Assembly (NCBI GenBank): GCA_041572755.1
Contig: JBFFRY010000009.1
Location: forward strand, 8,221 to 72,220
Length of the DNA: 64,000 bases
From: Acidimicrobiia bacterium
GTDB taxonomy: Bacteria; Actinomycetota; Acidimicrobiia; Spongiisociales; UBA11373
Direction of reading: 5' to 3'
Position numbers and translations under genes: made by a program. This document shows, piece after piece, positions 29,512 to 55,242 of the stretch (the first letter of the stretch is position 1; every line of letters starts with the position of its first letter). The notes beneath the pieces are model-generated. The model was not told where the DNA came from. It worked only from the letters and a program-made list of their open reading frames with translations, and did not search any database.

Positions 29512-29585
29512 TCGGGACGGCCGGATTTGAACCGGCGACCTCAGCGTCCCGAACGCTGCGCGCTGCCAAACTGCGCCACGTCCCG
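29512..29585 (-). tRNA. tRNA-Pro (anticodon CGG), CCA not encoded
   Basis: 74-nt cloverleaf CGGGACG...CAGCG-TTCGGGA-CGCTG...TTCAAAT...CGTCCCG-A. Confidence 0.97.
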
Positions 29586-44791: not shown

Positions 44792-45259
44792 CTACTTCGT
44801 GAGGTCGGGCAGCGCCATCTTGGTGCGGTGCTCGAAGATCAGTGAGGTCTCGATGTGGGCCACCTCGGGAAGGGTGGTGAACCCGCTCACCGCCAGGTCG
44901 CGCAGATGATCGGCATCACGCACCACGACGTGGACCAGGAAGTCGTTGGGCCCGGTGACGTGGAAGAGGCCGATCACCTCCGGCATCGACCCGGCATGGG
45001 CCCGGAAGGCATCGACCTCGGTCTCGGCGTGGCGGCGTAGGCGGATGGCGATCATCGCCTCGAGTCCGATGCCGAGAACCGCCGGATCGACATCGGCATG
45101 GAAACCCCGAAAGACACCGGCCCGCAGCAGCCGCCCGAGCCGCTCCGATAACGTCGACGGGGCGATCCCGACTCGGGCCGCGATCTGTCGATTCGAGCTC
45201 CGTGCATCGTCCATGAGAAGGCACACGATCTCGCGATCTGTTCGGTCGAGGCGCATCAT
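44792..45259 (-). CDS. Lrp/AsnC transcriptional regulator
   Basis: LDRTDREI..L..DAR HTH and C-terminal RAM domain (TGPNDFLVHV). Confidence 0.93.
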   Translation of the reverse strand: MMRLDRTDREIVCLLMDDARSSNRQIAARVGIAPSTLSERLGRLLRAGVFRGFHADVDPAVLGIGLEAMIAIRLRRHAETEVDAFRAHAGSMPEVIGLFHVTGPNDFLVHVVVRDADHLRDLAVSGFTTLPEVAHIETSLIFEHRTKMALPDLTK

Positions 45260-45407: not shown

Positions 45408-46796
45408 ATGCCGGATCGCCATCGCAGCTGGGCGGAGCCGTGGAAGATCAAGATGGTCGAACCGATCCGCATGTTGTCCCGGAGTGAACGCGAGGAGGCG
45501 ATTCGCCGCGCCGGCCACAACACCTTTCTCCTCAACTCGGAGGAGGTCTACATCGACCTGCTCACCGACTCGGGCACCTCGGCCATGTCGGACTACCAGT
45601 GGGCCGGGCTCATGTACGGGGACGAGGCGTATGCCGGTTCCCGCAGCTACCACAACCTCGAGGCGGCGGTGCGCGACGTCTACGGCTACGAGGAGCTCAT
45701 CCCCACCCACCAGGGACGGGGAGCGGAGCACATCCTCAGCCAGCTCCTGATCGAGCCGGGCGGCGTGGTACCGGGGAACATGTACTTCACCACGACCCGC
45801 TTTCACCAGGAGTTGGCCGGGGGAACCTTCGTCGACGTCATCATCGACGAGGCCCACCAGCCGGAGAGCAACCACCCGTTCAAAGGCAACATCGACATGG
45901 CCAAACTCGAGGCGGTGGTCGACGAGTACGGGGCCGATCGGGTGCCCTACGTCTCCTTCGAGACCAACGTCAACATGGCCGGCGGTCAGCCCGCCTCGAT
46001 GGCCAACATCCGTGAGGTCTACGAGTACTGCTCGGCACGGGGGATCCTGGTGATGCTGGATGCCACCCGGGCCCTCGAGAACGCCTATTTCATCCAGCAG
46101 CGGGAAGGCGGGTACGACGGCAAGTCGGTGGCCGAGATCCTCCGGGAGATCACCTCGTACAGCGACGGCGCCACCGTCTCCTCCAAGAAGGACAATCTCG
46201 TCAACATCGGTGGCTTCCTGGCGGTGCGCGACCAGGAGCTGGCGAAGCGGGCCAGGGCGATGCTGGTGGCCTTCGAGGGGTTCCAGACCTATGGCGGCAT
46301 GGCGGGACGCGACATGGAGGCCTTGGCCCGAGGGATCCGTGAGATGGTCGAGACCGATGATCACGTTCGGTCCCGGGTCGGCCAGGTCGAGTACCTCGGC
46401 AACGCCCTCATCAAGGCGGGCGTGCCGATCGTGCATCCGGTCGGGGGCCACGGCATCTTCCTGGACGCCGCTTCGATCCTTCCCCACCTCCCCATGGAGC
46501 ACTTTCCCGCCCAGGCGCTGGCGGCTGCCATCTACGTGGACTCCGGGGTGCGAGGGATGGAGCGCGGCATCGTCTCGGCGGGCCGCGACCCCAAGACCGG
46601 GGAGAACCGGATCCCGAAGCTCGAACTGGTGCGGCTCACGATTCCCCGCCGGGTGTACACCCAGTCCCACATGGATGTGACGGCCGAATCGGTGATCGCT
46701 CTGTGCGATGACCCCGGCGAGATCCGGGGCCTGCGGTTCACCTACGAGCCCGACACGCTGCGATTCTTCCAGGCTCGCTTCGAGCCCGTCGGCTGA
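45408..46796 (+). CDS. tpl: tyrosine phenol-lyase (beta-eliminating lyase)
   Basis: IDLLTDSGT, SSKKD (PLP Lys); TPL-type YFTTT, MERG, LRFF rather than tryptophanase FDTT, EIG, RHF. Confidence 0.8.
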   Translation: MPDRHRSWAEPWKIKMVEPIRMLSRSEREEAIRRAGHNTFLLNSEEVYIDLLTDSGTSAMSDYQWAGLMYGDEAYAGSRSYHNLEAAVRDVYGYEELIPTHQGRGAEHILSQLLIEPGGVVPGNMYFTTTRFHQELAGGTFVDVIIDEAHQPESNHPFKGNIDMAKLEAVVDEYGADRVPYVSFETNVNMAGGQPASMANIREVYEYCSARGILVMLDATRALENAYFIQQREGGYDGKSVAEILREITSYSDGATVSSKKDNLVNIGGFLAVRDQELAKRARAMLVAFEGFQTYGGMAGRDMEALARGIREMVETDDHVRSRVGQVEYLGNALIKAGVPIVHPVGGHGIFLDAASILPHLPMEHFPAQALAAAIYVDSGVRGMERGIVSAGRDPKTGENRIPKLELVRLTIPRRVYTQSHMDVTAESVIALCDDPGEIRGLRFTYEPDTLRFFQARFEPVG

Positions 46797-46859: not shown

Positions 46860-46888
46860 TTGACAGCCGGGTCCCCTTTGACCATCAT
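46860..46888 (+). promoter_or_regulatory. sigma70-type promoter for the Phe leader
   Basis: TTGACA (46860-46865), 17-nt spacer, CATCAT (46883-46888), 7 nt before the ATG. Confidence 0.65.
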
Positions 46889-46895
46889 CCCGGCG

Positions 46896-46958
46896 ATGAC
46901 GGTGCAGCGGACCTTCGTGAAGCGACCCTTCTTCGGCGCCGTCTTCTTTGGCGCTTAG
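46896..46958 (+). CDS. Phe-rich leader peptide (PheL-like, not in ORF track)
   Basis: [20 protein letters not shown]: 5 Phe in 20 aa, directly upstream of the pheA fusion. Confidence 0.8.
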
Positions 46959-46965
46959 GCGCCAA
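46948..46965 (+). promoter_or_regulatory. leader hairpin containing the leader-peptide stop codon
   Basis: TTGGCGC-TTAG-GCGCCAA followed by a C/T-rich tract. Confidence 0.55.
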
Positions 46966-47028
46966 CTTCTCTCTCCCCCCGCTGTCCGACCCCATTCCCG
47001 GCTCCGGCCGCGACCCCCGAGGTGTTCC

Positions 47029-49059
47029 ATGAAATCAGACGACGACAACATCGATCAGATCCGCAGCGGAATAGACGACATCGACGGCAAGATCCTGCAG
47101 CTGCTGGCGCAGCGACGGGCGTTCAGCGTGCGGGCTGCCCGGCTCAAGGGAGCCCGGGGTCATCCCTCGAGAAGCCCACTCCGCGAGGAGGACATGATCG
47201 CCGAGCGCATCGCCTCCGGTCTCGATCATCAGCTCGACTCGCGTCTCATCAACCGGCTCTGGCGGGAGATCGTCGAGGACTCCGTGAGGGTGCAGCGCGA
47301 CCTCCTCGGACGCCGGGAAACCGACGAGGGCCAGATCACGGCGGCGATCCAAGGGGTGGAGGGTTCCTACAGCCAGCTCGCCGCCCAGCAGATCTTCGAC
47401 GCAAAGGGCGGCCAGACGCTCGCCCATGTCATGGCACAGACCTTCGCGGAGGCCGTCGATGCGGTTCGGGATGGCCGAGCCGACGTCGCCGTGCTGCCGA
47501 TCGAGAACACGACCTCGGGGGCGATCTCGGAGGTGTACGACCTGTTGCTCGACAGCGGCCTCCACGTGATCGGCGACCTTCGCTTCCGAGTCCGGCACTG
47601 CCTCCTCGGTGTCGGCGGGGCCGACGTCGGAGGCTTGGAGCGGATCTACGCCCACCCCCAGGCCGCCGCCCAGTGCTCCGATTTCCTGGCGGGCCTGGAG
47701 CACTGCGAGGTGGTGATCTTCGGGGACACGGCGCTGTCGGGGAAGAAGATCGCGGCGCTCGGCGATCCCACGCTGGCGGCGATCGCCAGCGAGGAAGCCG
47801 GGCGGCTCTACGGACTCGAGGTGCTCCGGAGCGGGATCGCCAACCGGGATGAGAACTTCACCCGCTTCGTGGTCGTGGCACCGGCGCCCGTGGAGATCCC
47901 TCCCGGGGTGCCGGCCAAGACCTCGATCGTGATGACGGTGGGCAACCACCCCGGGGCCCTCATGGATGCGCTGGAGGTGTTCACCAAAGCCGACGTCAAT
48001 CTCGTGAAACTCGAGTCGAGACCGATCCCCTCGAATCCCACCGACGAACTCTTCTATCTGGACTTCGCCGGATCGGTCGACGAGCCCGAGGTAGCGGCGA
48101 TGCTCGAAACGCTCACGACCCATACGCACTTCCTCAAGGTGTTGGGCAGCTACCCGTCCCGGGACCTGAGGCCGCGTCCGGAGCCGGCACCGCCGGCGCC
48201 GCGGCGGAAGCCGGTCAAGGAACTCATCGAGACCCACTCCGACGAGATACCCAGCGGATACCGGCTGGGGAGTCGAGGGCACAAACGCCACAACACCGTC
48301 ATCGAGGTCGGCAACGTGCGGCTCGGCGGAGACGATCTGGTGGTGATCGCCGGGCCCTGCTCGGTGGAGTCGTGGGACCAGATCATGACCGCCGCTCAAG
48401 CCGTCAAGGAAGGGGGCGGACGCCTGCTCCGAGGAGGATGCTTCAAGCCGCGCACCTCGCCGTACAGCTTCCAGGGCCTCGGCTTCGAGGGACTGGAGAT
48501 GCTCGTCGAGGCCGGCAAGGCGTTCGGTCTGCCGATCGTGACCGAAGTGCTCGCTCCCGAGGACGTCCCCGCCGTGGCCACCAGAGCCGACGTGCTGCAG
48601 ATCGGCACCAGGAACATGCAGAACTTCGCGTTGCTCTCGGCAGTGGGCCGGGCCCATCGACCCGTGATGCTGAAGCGGGGCATGAGCTCGTCGCTCGACG
48701 AGCTTCTCCAGGCGGCCGAGTACATCCTGGCCGAAGGGAACCAGCAGGTGTTCCTGTGCGAGCGAGGGATCCGCACCTTCGAGACCTCGACCCGCAACAC
48801 CCTCGACCTCAGCGCGGTTCCGGTGCTGCGGGGCCGGACCCACCTGCCGGTGATCGTCGACCCGTCGCACGCCGCCGGGGAGCGTTCACTGGTGCCGCCG
48901 CTCGCCATCGCCGGAGCTGCCATCGGTGCCCACGGCATCATGGTCGAGATCCATCCCGACCCACCGAGCGCCCTGAGCGACGGCCCCCAGTCCCTGGACC
49001 TGGATCAGTTCGCCCGGTTGATGGAAGACCTGGGGTTCTCTCAACGAAAGGAGCCGTAG
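47029..49059 (+). CDS. fusion: AroQ chorismate mutase + prephenate dehydratase + ACT + type I-beta DAHP synthase
   Basis: [11 protein letters not shown] (CM), QGVEGSYS and PIENTTSG (PDT), LESRP (ACT), IAGPCSVE and [11 protein letters not shown] (DAHPS), all in one frame; SD GAGGTG. Confidence 0.92.
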
Positions 49060-51709: not shown

Positions 51710-52346
51710 ACCGGTAGCCCACGGATCGGACGGTGGTGATCCACCCTGCCCGCCCTTCACCGAGCTTGGCCCGCAGCCGGCGCACGTGGACGTCGACGGT
51801 GCGCGCACCACCGAAGTAGTCGTAGCCCCACACCCGCTCCAGCAGCTGTTCCCGGGTCCACACTCGGCCCTGGTGGGCCACGAAGAAGTGGAGCAGCTCG
51901 TACTCCATGAATGTGAGGTCTATGGGCACGTTCGTCAGCGTGGCCTGGTAGGTGGCGAGATCCAGGGTGAGATCCTTGAACGTGATCTTCTCGTCGGCCT
52001 CGAACGCTGCGGGGTTCAGTCGGCGGAGTCGAAGGGCGAGCTCTTCCCGGTCGATGGGAGTGAGCACGAAGTCGGTGAAGTCCTCGGCGCCCTCGAGGAG
52101 ATCGGTCTGCAGCCGGGTGGCCACGACCAGGCTGGGAATGCCCAGCGACCGTTTGCAGCGGCGGGCCAGGGAGAGACCGGTTTCGGGATCGTCACCGAGT
52201 TCCACCACCAACGCCGCCCAACCCTCCGCCGGTTCGCGATCGGACACCTCAGCGGCATCGGCGACCGGGACCGGACGGAACCCGGCCTCGATCAACCCCT
52301 CCGTGAGGGCAACGGTCGGTTCGGTGGGGTGAACGGCGACGAACAT
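51702..52346 (-). CDS. glnR: GlnR-like orphan OmpR-family response regulator
   Basis: LTFMEYELL, VWGYDYFGGARTVDVHVRRLRAKLG, TVRSVGYRF; atypical receiver; TGATG overlap with the GS gene. Confidence 0.8.
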   Translation of the reverse strand: MFVAVHPTEPTVALTEGLIEAGFRPVPVADAAEVSDREPAEGWAALVVELGDDPETGLSLARRCKRSLGIPSLVVATRLQTDLLEGAEDFTDFVLTPIDREELALRLRRLNPAAFEADEKITFKDLTLDLATYQATLTNVPIDLTFMEYELLHFFVAHQGRVWTREQLLERVWGYDYFGGARTVDVHVRRLRAKLGEGRAGWITTVRSVGYRFG

Positions 52347-53674
52347 CAGAGAACGGGAAGGTACTCGATCAGCTCGTATCGGGAAACATGGCGCTGGTAG
52401 CGCTCCCACTCCTTCCGCTTGTTGCGCAGGAACCATTCGAACACGTGCTCCCCGAGCGCGCGGGCGACCAGCTCCGATCCCTCCATGACATCGAGGGCTT
52501 GGGCGAGAGTTCCGGGGAGCCTGGTGACACCGGCAGCGATGCGTTCCTCGGCCGTGAGCGTGTTGATGTTCGTGGTTGTCTCCGGGGGCAGCTCGAACCC
52601 GTTCTCGATGCCGCTCAGACCGGCCGCCAGGATCACCGACAGGGCCAGATAGGGGTTGCAGGCGGGGTCGGGTGACCGGTACTCGATCCGGGTGCTCGTG
52701 GGTTTGCCCTTCTTGGGGGTCGGGACCCGAACCAGCGCCGACTGGTTGTTGCGGGCCCAGGTGACGAAGACCGGGGCCTCAAAGCCGTCGACGAGTCGTT
52801 TGTAGGAGTTCACCCACTGGTTGGTCACCGCGGTGATCTCGGGGGCGTGTGTGAGCAGCCCGGCGATGAATCCTTGCGCCACCTTGGAGAGCCCGTACTC
52901 GCCGCCGGGATGGTGGAAGGCGTTCTTGTCGCCTTCGAACAGTGAGAGATGAACGTGAAGGGCGGTGCCGTCGTGGCCTTCCAGAGGCTTGGGCATGAAG
53001 GTGGCATAGATCCCGTTTTGCAGAGCCACCTCCTTGATGGCGAGGCGGGTGGTCATGAGCGTGTCGGCCATGGTGAGGGCATCGGTGTAGCGGAGATCGA
53101 GCTCGTGCTGGCTGGGGGCCACTTCGTGGTGGGAGAGCTCAACCGGGATGCCGAGGCTCTCGAGCATCATGATCGTGTGGCGGCGGTATTCCTGGGCAAC
53201 GTCGATGGGAGTGAGGTCGAAGTAACCCCCCCGGTCGAGAACCTCCGGCTCCGGCCCCGAGTCGCGGAAATAGAAGTACTCCACCTCGGGTCCCACGTAG
53301 AACGAGAAGCCCAGATCGGCCGCCCGTTCCAGGTTGCGCATCAGAACGGTGCGGGGATCGCCCTCGAAGGGTTCCCCGTCGGGGGTGACGATGTTGCAGA
53401 ACATGCGGGCAACGCCGGCGTGCTCCCCCTTCCAGGGCAGGATCTGGAACGTGGTGGGGTCGGGGCGGGCCAGCATGTCGGCTTCCTGGACTCGAGAGAA
53501 GCCGTCGATGGCGGAGCCATCGAACTGCATGCCCTCATCGAAGGCGGTCTCCAGTTCGGCCGGGGTGATCGCAAAGGACTTGAGGAAGCCCAGGACGTCG
53601 GTGAACCAGAGCCGGATGAAGCGAATCCCCCGCTCCTCGACGGTGCGAAGGACGTAGTCCTCTTGTCTCGCCAT
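52346..53674 (-). CDS. glutamine synthetase family, GlnA2-like (GSI-alpha)
   Basis: [43 protein letters not shown]; no adenylylation tyrosine motif seen. Confidence 0.9.
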
Positions 53675-53725
53675 ATGACCTCCGGCGACTCATGGTACGG
53701 GAGGCCGCCCGGACCTGGAAGGGGG

Positions 53726-53774
53726 GTCGCCCCTCTGAAACACACTGTTCACATTGGGGCAATCGGCCGGAAAC
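53726..53774 (+). promoter_or_regulatory. putative GlnR box array upstream of glnA
   Basis: GTCGC-n6-GAAAC-n6-TTCAC-n6-GCAAT-n6-GAAAC, five half-sites exactly 11 bp apart. Confidence 0.65.
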
Positions 53775-53820
53775 GCTCCGGAGGTACAAATCTCGACGGC
53801 CAATCAAGGAGTACACCACC

Positions 53821-55242
53821 ATGGCGTCACCAAAGGACGTCCTCGCCATGGTCGCCGACGGCGGCTACGAGTTCGTCGATCTACGGTTCTGCGATCTTCC
53901 CGGGCAGGTCCAGCACTTCACGATCCCGTCGTCGCATTTCACCGAGGACGGATTCGAGGAGGGATACGGGTTCGATGGATCTTCCATCCGCGGGTTCCAG
54001 GAGATCCAGGAGTCCGACATGATCCTGGTGCCCGATCCGGACACGGCCGTCGACGATCCCTTCCGCGACCTCAAGACACTCATCGTCTACTGCTGGGTCA
54101 AGGATCCGATCACCGGCCAGCCCTATGAGAAGGACCCCCGGTTCGTTGCTCAGAAGGCGGAGAGCTACTTGCGCAGTACCGGTCTTGCCGACGCCTCCTA
54201 CTGGGGACCCGAGGCAGAGTTCTACGTCTTCGATTCAGCGCGATTCGACCAGGACCAGAACTCCGCCTTCTACGAGGTCGATTCGATCGAGGGGGCCTGG
54301 AACAGCGGCGCCGACGAGCCGGGCGGCAACCTGGCCTACAAGCCCCGCTTCAAGGAGGGGTACTTCCCCGTGCCCCCGACCGACCACTACCAGGATCTCA
54401 GATCGGAGATGACCAGGAGGCTCACCGAGGCCGGTATCGAGGTCGAGGTGCACCACCACGAGGTCGGAACGGCCGGCCAGGCCGAGATCGACATCAAGTA
54501 CGGCCCGCTGCTGCGGGTTGCCGATCAGGTGACGCTCTTCAAGTACATCGTGAAGAACGTCGCCTGGGACCACGACAAGACGGTGACCTTCATGCCGAAA
54601 CCGATCTTCCAGGACAACGGCTCGGGAATGCATACCCACCAGAGCCTCTGGCTGGACGGCAAGCCGCTGTTCTACGACGAGTCCGGGTACGCCGGGCTCT
54701 CCGACATGGCTCGGTACTACGTCGGTGGGCTTCTCAAGCACGCCGGTGCGGTGCTGGCGTTTGCCGCCCCGACAACCAACTCGTACCGGCGCCTGGTTCC
54801 CGGGTATGAGGCGCCGGTCAACCTGGTCTACAGCCAGAGGAACCGGTCGGCAGCGGTTCGGGTGCCGGTCTACTCACAGAAGCCGGCCGCCAAACGCCTC
54901 GAGTTCCGGTGTCCGGATCCGTCGGCGAACCCCTACCTGGCCTTCTCGGCGATGTTGATGGCGGGTCTGGACGGGATCGCCAATCAGATCGATCCGGGGG
55001 CCCCGGTCGACAAGGACCTCTACGACCTGCCTCCCGAGGAGCTGGCCCAGGTTCCCTCGGTCCCCGGCTCACTGGAGGAGAGCTTGCTGGCCTTGGAGCG
55101 GGATCACGAGTTCCTGCTTGCCGGCGGGGTCTTCACCGAAGGCTTGATCGCGGACTGGATCGCCTACAAACGGTCGGCCGAGGTCGACGAGGTGAGGCTC
55201 CGCCCCCATCCCTACGAGTTCAAGCTCTACTACGACATCTAG
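53821..55242 (+). CDS. glnA: glutamine synthetase I-beta
   Basis: [26 protein letters not shown]...GSGMH, LEFRCPD, adenylylation motif DKDLYDL. Confidence 0.96.

Follow-up and report, generated by a model that had tools for sequence, protein, structure and literature searches.

We analyzed a 64,000-nucleotide (nt) stretch of an Acidimicrobiia genome (GenBank assembly GCA_041572755.1, contig JBFFRY010000009.1, positions 8,221 to 72,220 of the forward strand; hereafter the window) in which a short open reading frame (sORF) rich in phenylalanine (Phe) codons precedes a gene for a fused enzyme of the Phe pathway. The enzyme gene occupies positions 47029–49059 on the plus strand, as do all of the leader features described below, and its 676-residue product matches the CM_2, PDT, ACT and DAHP_synth_1 domains, making it a trifunctional chorismate mutase/prephenate dehydratase (with ACT)/DAHP synthase of type I-beta. 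Its Shine–Dalgarno (SD) sequence, GAGGUG at 47019–47024, is listed as lying 6 nt before the AUG, and a GAGG or GGAG is conserved among relatives, where the SD and AUG follow the sORF stop codon by 62–83 nt. Between the promoter and this gene lie the 20-codon sORF, a hairpin that holds the sORF stop codon in its loop and a C-rich spacer, which together form the candidate attenuator considered here.

To place the leader in a comparative context, a genome scan with the enzyme yielded 72 loci, the closest of which come from Acidimicrobiia metagenome-assembled genomes (MAGs) at 55–75% identity, and a metagenome scan added 80 further loci, including one (L128) at 93% identity. Full-length trifunctional orthologues are present in MAGs of Acidimicrobiia, Vicinamibacteria, Thermoanaerobaculia, Ignavibacteria and Planctomycetota; a full-text literature search for a trifunctional protein combining these three enzymes brought up no publication on it. 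Conservation was assessed in the 87 Acidimicrobiia-type loci with enough upstream DNA, which encode 70 distinct leader peptides.

The promoter and the leader open reading frame

The -35 hexamer TTGACA (46860–46865) and the -10 hexamer CATCAT (46883–46888) are separated by 17 nt, and the -10 hexamer ends 7 nt before the ATG at 46896, as an earlier sequence-only reading of this DNA had proposed. No sigma-70-like site in 60 kb of the window exceeds the 10/12 match of this promoter, and there is no other promoter-like site in the surrounding 2 kb. The same geometry recurs in the related loci: TTGAC is found at an equal distance in 87 of 87, the -10 hexamer (GATAAT, CACAAT, CATCAT or GAGCAT) lies 6–10 nt ahead of the sORF ATG in 86 of 87, and this interval leaves no room for an SD sequence, from which we infer a 5' untranslated region (UTR) of 0–3 nt. 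With the start placed from the promoter hexamers alone, transcription is predicted to begin no more than ∼3 nt from ATG 46896, and the sORF would accordingly be read as a leaderless message.

The sORF extends from 46896 to 46958 and ends with the TAG codon at 46956–46958. Its translation bears out the proposed Phe-rich peptide with two FF pairs: five of the 20 codons specify Phe (46914–46916, 46929–46934 and 46944–46949), the pairs being at codons 12–13 and 17–18. Among the 405 ATG-started open reading frames of 12–40 codons in the window, it is the only one with at least four Phe residues or two FF pairs, and Phe codons make up 1.5% of all triplets in the window. The sORFs of the relatives have 20–26 codons. 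Their N-terminal two thirds are unconserved in both sequence and length (MTTSPSS..., MKTGPTP..., MQTNRLTV..., MSRDAAA..., MKAHHTP...), whereas the content of Phe and tyrosine (Tyr) near the stop codon is kept even though single positions vary. The last 11 codons contain on average 4.6 Phe plus Tyr codons (42%), as compared with 1.8% in the rest of the sORF (70 peptides), which answers in the affirmative the question, raised in the sequence-only reading, of whether Phe codons are conserved upstream of orthologous genes. Numbering codons back from the stop, most relatives have FF at -9 and -8, many have F-x-Y-F or F-Y-F motifs, and a Phe three codons ahead of the stop is invariant, the peptides ending in F-G-A with a single F-G-V exception. 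In L128, near identity with the window extends from the -35 hexamer to the enzyme ATG and gives way to diverged DNA immediately upstream; the two sORFs differ by three amino acids, all of them N-terminal. A freely varying N-terminus joined to an F/Y-rich 3' end points to the regulatory codons of a translated leader, rather than to a functional small protein or a chance reading frame.

The motif TTYGGCGCNTAG(C)GCGCC has 94 matches in 817 kb, one per locus and none elsewhere, and is therefore specific enough to be used for annotating these leaders. Leaderless sORFs with runs of a single amino acid other than the Phe leaders were found neither in the window nor in any of the 152 loci scanned. The stop codon of the 87 Acidimicrobiia leaders is UAG in the majority and otherwise UAA, never UGA, in genomes of ∼67% GC; the leader search pattern demanded a TA[AG] stop, and it matched without exception the Acidimicrobiia-type loci whose upstream DNA was long enough.

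RNA structure of the leader

The stop codon of the sORF lies in the loop of a helix that we term P2, UUGGCGC-UUAG-GCGCCAA (46948–46965), with the last Phe codon at its 5' base. The 7-bp stem is formed by the arms TTGGCGC (46948–46954) and GCGCCAA (46959–46965) around the loop TTAG (46955–46958), as described in the sequence-only reading, and the helix is conserved with compensatory changes. All 45 distinct variants fold, with 5–8 bp and energies of -8 to -14.6 kcal/mol, and the GGCGC:GCGCC core hardly changes. As their outer pair, 27 variants have C-G, 7 have U-A and 2 have U.G; in four variants, a change of the Ala codon GCC to GCG together with an inserted C adds a G-C pair, and three carry G.U pairs. 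Pair types were counted from folds of the individual sequences because a MAFFT alignment of the hairpin segments placed the 3' arms out of register. The loops are CUA, GUAA, UAG, UUAG and GUUUA, and the stop codon overlaps the loop in every case.

The earlier reading had also suggested that the GGCGCC within the 3' arm (46958–46963) could pair instead with the GGCGCC at 46935–46940. The sequence occurs at both places and the pairing can form in the window; however, it is not a conserved partner, and the upstream segment lies in the 3' strand of a second helix, P1. An alternative of the 2:3 type in the window, GGCGCC at 46935–46940 with GGCGCU at 46950–46955, is likewise not kept across clades.

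P1 closes the 5' end of the RNA. In the window, its 5' strand, GACGGUGC (46898–46905), begins at the G of the AUG and its 3' strand, GCGCCGUC (46936–46943), lies between the two FF codon pairs, as identified from the minimum free energy (MFE) structure, pair counts and duplex z-scores. More generally, P1 joins RNA nucleotides ∼3–14, which begin at the G of the AUG or immediately behind it, to the Phe/Tyr segment 12–21 nt before the stop codon. The pairing partners change from clade to clade, being GACGAGCCC:GGGUUCGUC in the main clade, AGUCGGACCC:GGGUUCGACU in L019, GGCGAACC:GGUUCGCC in L054, L025, L113 and L083, and GACGUACC:GGUACGUC in L085 and L094. In L019, the Val-to-Asp change GUC>GAC is matched by ACG>UCG; elsewhere, GUC>GCC accompanies A>G and UUC>UAC accompanies A/G>U.

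A duplex search for P1 gave a mean z of -1.84 over 71 distinct leaders. For the pair counts, we used alignments anchored on the start and stop codons only and not fitted to structure. In the class with long sORFs, 79.6% of cells pair, compared with 29–54% when the partner is slid, and the covariation score is 0.231 vs 0.154±0.014 in shuffles (0/500). In the short-sORF class, which includes the window, 72.5% pair vs 36–59%, and the covariation score is 0.226 vs 0.145±0.03 (3/500). RNAalifold applied to a MAFFT alignment of the whole leaders recovered P2 and no other conserved stem before the enzyme gene; P1 is missed by this approach because the variable N-terminal codons misalign. The 73-nt sORF domain of the window folds as P1 plus P2 with -31.1 kcal/mol and z = -2.76 relative to shuffles, whereas the whole 150-nt region folds no better than its shuffles (z = 0.03).

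Downstream of P2 is a C-rich, G-poor spacer (46966–47018) that by base composition and folding is predicted to be unstructured and is a candidate Rho-loading (rut) region. A C-rich, G-poor tract after the hairpin had been noted in the window, and it proves to be a property of the clade: among 78 distinct sequences, positions +10 to +19 after the stop codon have 0% G and 65% C, and out to +49 the composition is 46–55% C and 10–19% G. The spacer as a whole averages 52% C and 13% G, and the C/G ratio of 2.3 in the 60-nt spacer of the window places it in the top 0.6% of 60-nt windows there. RNAalifold on the leaders revealed no conserved structure in the spacer, and a separate folding calculation for the spacer gave z = +0.27. 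A possible third helix, between CCGCG in the spacer and ACGCG before the SD, appears in some MFE structures and has no RNAalifold support. Inspection by hand found no conserved pairing of a freed 5' strand or of the hairpin 3' arm with the spacer or ribosome-binding site (RBS); one such candidate in the window, CAGCGG:CCGCUG, is not kept in L128.

The sequence-only reading held that no classical U-tract terminator follows the hairpin. This is correct for the relatives, among which no U-tract is conserved and whose tails are C-rich, of the AUUCACCCCACC type, and it requires a correction for the window itself, where the tail after P2 (CTTCTCTCTCCCCCC, also given as CUUCUCUCUCCCCCC) has 5 U in 10 nt and a simple terminator scan flags P2. 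Because this U-rich tail is not conserved, we rejected an intrinsic terminator as the general mechanism. The window has no excess of canonical terminators (25 found vs 18.3 expected), and none of those found has a real U-run.

Probable Phe sensing and the possible regulatory outputs

Taken as a whole, these features make it highly probable that the leader is a ribosome-mediated attenuator that senses charged tRNA-Phe and controls the fused chorismate mutase/prephenate dehydratase/DAHP synthase gene, and tRNA-Tyr is probably sensed as well. This degree of confidence applies to the sensing step and not to the output step. The proposal of a Phe-sensing attenuator that works without a classical terminator thus finds support in the conservation of the leader across Acidimicrobiia, in the Phe-pathway gene downstream and in the leaders of orthologous genes in two other phyla.

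Six Vicinamibacteria loci (L047, L049–L051, L053 and L062) have TTGACA-N18-CAGAAT followed 9 nt later by the ATG of the sORF MNVAKSRGRFVFTCSHGAGGGVV*, in a leader ∼240 nt upstream of the match start (for example, L049:2763–3000). Here, the G of the AUG plus AAC can pair with GUUC of the first Phe codon, and the 3' strand of a hairpin duplicates the 3' strand of a 15-bp terminator stem that is followed by UUUUGCUUUUC. As judged from sequence, this leader is a textbook Phe attenuator with a 1:2 hairpin and a terminator. In the Phycisphaeraceae locus L045 (2798–2995), TTGACT-17-AATGAT is followed 6 nt later by the GTG of the sORF MLLWNAFITDRRFFFGYFTAGGRSAMV*, and the RBS is immediately preceded by a terminator made up of AACGCCGGCC...GGCCGGCGUU and U7 (fold z = -3.25). 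Both leaders resemble that of the Acidimicrobiia in their trifunctional target, leaderless promoter geometry, sORF Phe codons and paired RNA 5' end; they differ in their long terminator stems, followed by UUUUGCUUUUC or U7, and in their unrelated peptides. The occurrence of Phe leaders with unrelated peptides on the same gene in three lineages strongly supports Phe sensing in the Acidimicrobiia. In two Thermoanaerobaculia loci, L039 and L043, the frames ...GLFFSSGE... and ...GFFFSAGRRG... are found close beside the gene start, ∼60 nt ahead of where the match begins. These may be a further type of leader or may have arisen by chance; a search of L043 found no promoter-like or terminator-like site.

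In the mechanism that we propose, scarcity of Phe-tRNA would cause a ribosome that has entered at the 5' AUG to stall on the clustered Phe, and probably Tyr, codons. A stall with codon -9, -8 or -6 in the A site would cover the 3' strand of P1, leaving the 5' AUG open for further ribosomes, and a stall at the invariant Phe -3 would also melt P2 by burying its 5' arm. When Phe is plentiful, the ribosome would terminate in the P2 loop and leave, P1 and P2 would form and the 5' AUG would be shut. That a 5'-closing helix is also found in the Vicinamibacteria and Phycisphaeraceae leaders suggests that a pioneer ribosome makes the decision during transcription, which would weakly favor a transcriptional output.

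Among the possible outputs, Rho-dependent termination on the C-rich spacer fits the clade-wide features best, because the leader ends in a long, unstructured, G-free tract of constant length in a lineage lacking evident U-tract terminators; we favor it tentatively, at somewhat less than an even chance. The rut site would be the G-free spacer, perhaps with the C-rich P1 loop as its second half, and would be hidden by stalled and queued ribosomes. Such a split site would resemble that of lambda tR1, in which a hairpin separates rutA from rutB.

The alternative that survives best retains the same sensor and makes the output purely translational, as in the mycobacterial leaderless sORFs for cysteine (Cys): sORF sequences would mask the RBS of the enzyme gene, and a ribosome stalled on the Phe/Tyr codons would uncover it. 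The pairing sequence could be the FF-G codons (CUUCGG with CCGAGG), the codons that immediately precede these or the G-F-V-Y segment. We regard this output as a possibility of rather low probability. Its mechanism has been demonstrated for the mycobacterial sORF Ms5788A, and the actinobacterial LEU element similarly pairs Leu codons with the SD. In our set, most leaders have an SD that is predicted to be paired (mean P = 0.81), the sORF being the partner for 36% of this pairing. The clearest case is the ...TPRRFFGFVYFGA sub-clade, in which an 11-nt segment, CGCCUCGGCGC, perfectly complements GCGCCGAGGCG at the RBS with z of -2 to -4.5, making it the best candidate for attenuation of the kind described by Canestrari et al. 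This sub-clade comprises L012–L020, L046, L057 and L116–L123, with CGCCUCGGCGC at codons -13 to -10 and GCGCCGAGGCG spanning the SD. In addition, L006 and L008 pair GGGUUCGUCU with AGGCGAACCC in their MFE structure, L002 has CGCCUCGGG opposite CCCGAGGUG, and in several such loci opening of the SD costs 4–8 kcal/mol less when a ribosome is stalled at F-9, F-8 or F-6.

These effects do not extend to the clade as a whole. Footprint-constrained partition functions for 37 loci showed that stalling does not consistently open the SD (mean change 0.06 kcal/mol), and the SD of the window is predicted to be open in every state. Complementarity between sORF and RBS is not cognate-specific when the two are cross-paired by permutation (p = 0.40); it is significant only in sub-clades, with no excess in the window (z = +0.65), in L128 (-0.22) or in the L016/L021 and L131–134 clades. 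CUUCGG:CCGAGG would moreover form a pseudoknot with P1, which is outside the scoring of RNAfold. SD masking was rejected as a universal mechanism, the footprint model having shown no consistent effect, the permutation test no cognate specificity and the dinucleotide-shuffle tests significance only in sub-clades. A purely translational output would also leave unexplained both the conserved 62–83-nt G-poor spacer and P1, which closes the 5' AUG and would limit repeated sampling by ribosomes.

A second alternative is that P2 is itself a terminator of the U-tract-poor type proposed for high-GC Actinobacteria, perhaps aided by NusG, and that RNA polymerase reads through when a ribosome stalled at the final Phe/Tyr codons hides the 5' arm. 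In favor of this, the GC hairpin P2 is stable and has the invariant Phe codon at its 5' base, the window tail passes the simple scan, U-tract terminators are not enriched in this genome and the window has 1:2, 2:3 and 3:4 complementarity among 46898–46905, 46936–46943, 46948–46954 and 46959–46965. Nevertheless, the tails of relatives (AUUCACCCCACC, CCCUACUCCACC) consist of 1–3 U and then a C-run; the RNA:DNA hybrid would in that case be very stable, contrary to the requirement for release. The mycobacterial RNA polymerase reportedly needs a U-tract in vitro. In addition, the 2:3 alternative is not conserved, and occupancy of the most conserved tandem Phe codons (-9 and -8) would leave P2 intact, which is the wrong regulatory sign. 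We therefore consider termination at P2 by this route to be quite unlikely. Taken jointly, factor-assisted termination at P2, stabilization of the mRNA by parked ribosomes and outputs of some other kind are about as probable as masking of the RBS.

The weakest alternative is that there is no attenuator, and that either the sORF encodes a small functional hydrophobic peptide or TTGGCGC-N4-GCGCCAA is the DNA operator of a repressor and the Phe frame is incidental. The F-G-A ending and GGCGC/GCGCC core are indeed stricter than structure alone demands and, read as DNA, the repeat forms a perfect palindrome. However, unconserved N-terminal two thirds with F/Y kept near the stop are the mark of regulatory codons, and the enzyme encoded downstream belongs to the cognate pathway. 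In two other phyla, the orthologue has Phe-containing leader sORFs of unrelated sequence, and the hairpin tolerates loop changes and G.U pairs that make sense for RNA and not for an operator, so that this reading is highly improbable.

Several observations weigh against the attenuator and its output as we have formulated them. A ribosome stalled in the sORF would not physically cover the spacer, and the Rho model consequently needs steric or bipartite-rut assumptions. The ATG lies 9–10 nt past the -10 hexamer in most relatives, which makes a UTR of 1–3 nt as likely as a strictly leaderless transcript. In the long-sORF class, a control in which the P1 partner is slid by -1 equals P1 in its covariation score, because one clade uses that register, and the loci are related by descent, so that the shuffle-based counts overstate their independence. 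The calculations of SD opening and the permutation and complementarity tests given above count here as well. Finally, the strictness of the F-G-A ending and the P2 core exceeds what a plain hairpin needs, and a sequence-specific partner may be missing from the model. A speculative arrangement, which would be an attenuator design not described before, uses the Phe/Tyr codons as the 3' strand of the AUG-closing helix, so that the message would stay open only through a pioneer ribosome or stalled ribosomes. Its output would be Rho action on a G-free rut tract split by the stop-codon hairpin, in place of an intrinsic terminator or SD masking, and the F-G-A ending and P2 core might also be read by a specific factor.

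Known leaders and the genomic neighborhood

The leader can be compared with several characterized systems. Like E. coli pheL-pheA, it has a short Phe-rich leader directly upstream of a chorismate mutase/prephenate dehydratase gene, and stalling at Phe codons would be the sensor. However, pheL has an SD, a 1:2/2:3/3:4 set of hairpins and an intrinsic terminator with a U-tract, whereas the Acidimicrobiia leader has a sORF predicted to be leaderless, no conserved U-tract and a C-rich, G-free spacer. A search of Rfam 15 gave no match to Phe_leader or to any other leader or attenuator, either at the gathering score or at E ≤ 10, and a single miRNA match at chance level. With no leader SD, terminator or Rfam match, the Acidimicrobiia element is, by its sequence, not a member of the pheL family.

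In E. coli tnaC-tnaA and speFL-speF, a ribosome parked at the end of the leader open reading frame keeps Rho off the RNA. As in these systems, the leader open reading frame ends next to an unstructured C-rich, G-poor tract of ∼60–80 nt. tnaC and speFL encode ligand-dependent arrest peptides, belong to catabolic or decarboxylase operons and have a rut site that overlaps the ribosome footprint. For the Acidimicrobiia leader, by contrast, we propose a stall caused by starvation, and the footprint would end 5–8 nt short of the C-tract.

The sequence-only reading regarded the leader as a Phe counterpart of the leaderless Cys sORFs of mycobacteria, and in architecture this analogy is apt. In Ms5788A (Canestrari et al. 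2020), the sORF is leaderless and its Cys-codon tract pairs with the SD region, a mechanism that has been demonstrated. In both cases, as predicted for the Acidimicrobiia leader from its promoter, the sORF comes first on the transcript, the regulatory codons are near its 3' end, there is no terminator and genes of the cognate pathway follow. Ms5788A differs in sensing Cys and in its pairing of the codon tract with the SD, which in our set is strong only in sub-clades and absent from the window. For P1, P2 and the G-free spacer, there is no described counterpart in the mycobacterial Cys sORFs.

Phe-responsive leaders are known in Actinobacteria from Corynebacterium glutamicum aroR. In PMC11802643, which summarizes Neshat et al. 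(2014), aroR is described as a leader peptide with a Phe-Tyr-Phe motif that lies upstream of the DAHP synthase gene aroF, responds to Phe limitation and acts by transcription attenuation at a terminator. The F/Y motifs of many Acidimicrobiia leaders and the DAHP synthase domain of the target are points of similarity. Compared with aroR as described, the Acidimicrobiia leader differs in lineage, promoter–ATG geometry, P1/P2 architecture and the fusion of its target, and it has no conserved terminator. For Phe genes, a 2005 survey of Actinobacteria listed no upstream RNA element, and our literature search found no description of the present element, nor of a Phe leader with pheA in Actinobacteria. 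The earlier suggestion that such a leader was not known in this lineage is qualified by aroR, which has a terminator and is a Phe-responsive leader already known in Actinobacteria. Sensing of this kind is long established; the novelty resides in the lineage and in the design with P1, P2 and the G-free spacer.

Nearly all known attenuators that respond to amino acids come from Proteobacteria, Firmicutes and a small number of model Actinobacteria, and the present leader adds a class-wide candidate Phe/Tyr sensor in the largely uncultured Acidimicrobiia. In three phyla, the same fused enzyme gene appears to have come under Phe leader peptides that differ in their output modules. A predicted leaderless sORF with two covarying helices and a G-free spacer also provides a defined and mutable test case for how stalling is converted into expression in high-GC bacteria that rarely use U-tract terminators, a question that also arises for most of the mycobacterial leaderless sORFs.

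Directly upstream of the leader, on the same strand, is a tyrosine phenol-lyase gene (45408–46796; TIGR02618, with a score exactly at the cut-off), and upstream there is also a divergently transcribed gene for a regulator of the Lrp/AsnC family (44792–45259). A Tyr-degrading enzyme gene thus adjoins the Phe-biosynthetic one; L128 appears to share this gene order, and other relatives do not. Further downstream, a divergent pair of adjacent glutamine synthetase genes (each Gln-synt_N plus Gln-synt_C) occupies 52346–53674 (minus strand) and 53692–55242 (plus strand). The window has only two Rfam matches at the gathering score, a tRNA gene (29512–29585, minus strand) and a fluoride riboswitch (RF01734; 7420–7483, minus strand; 49.3 bits).

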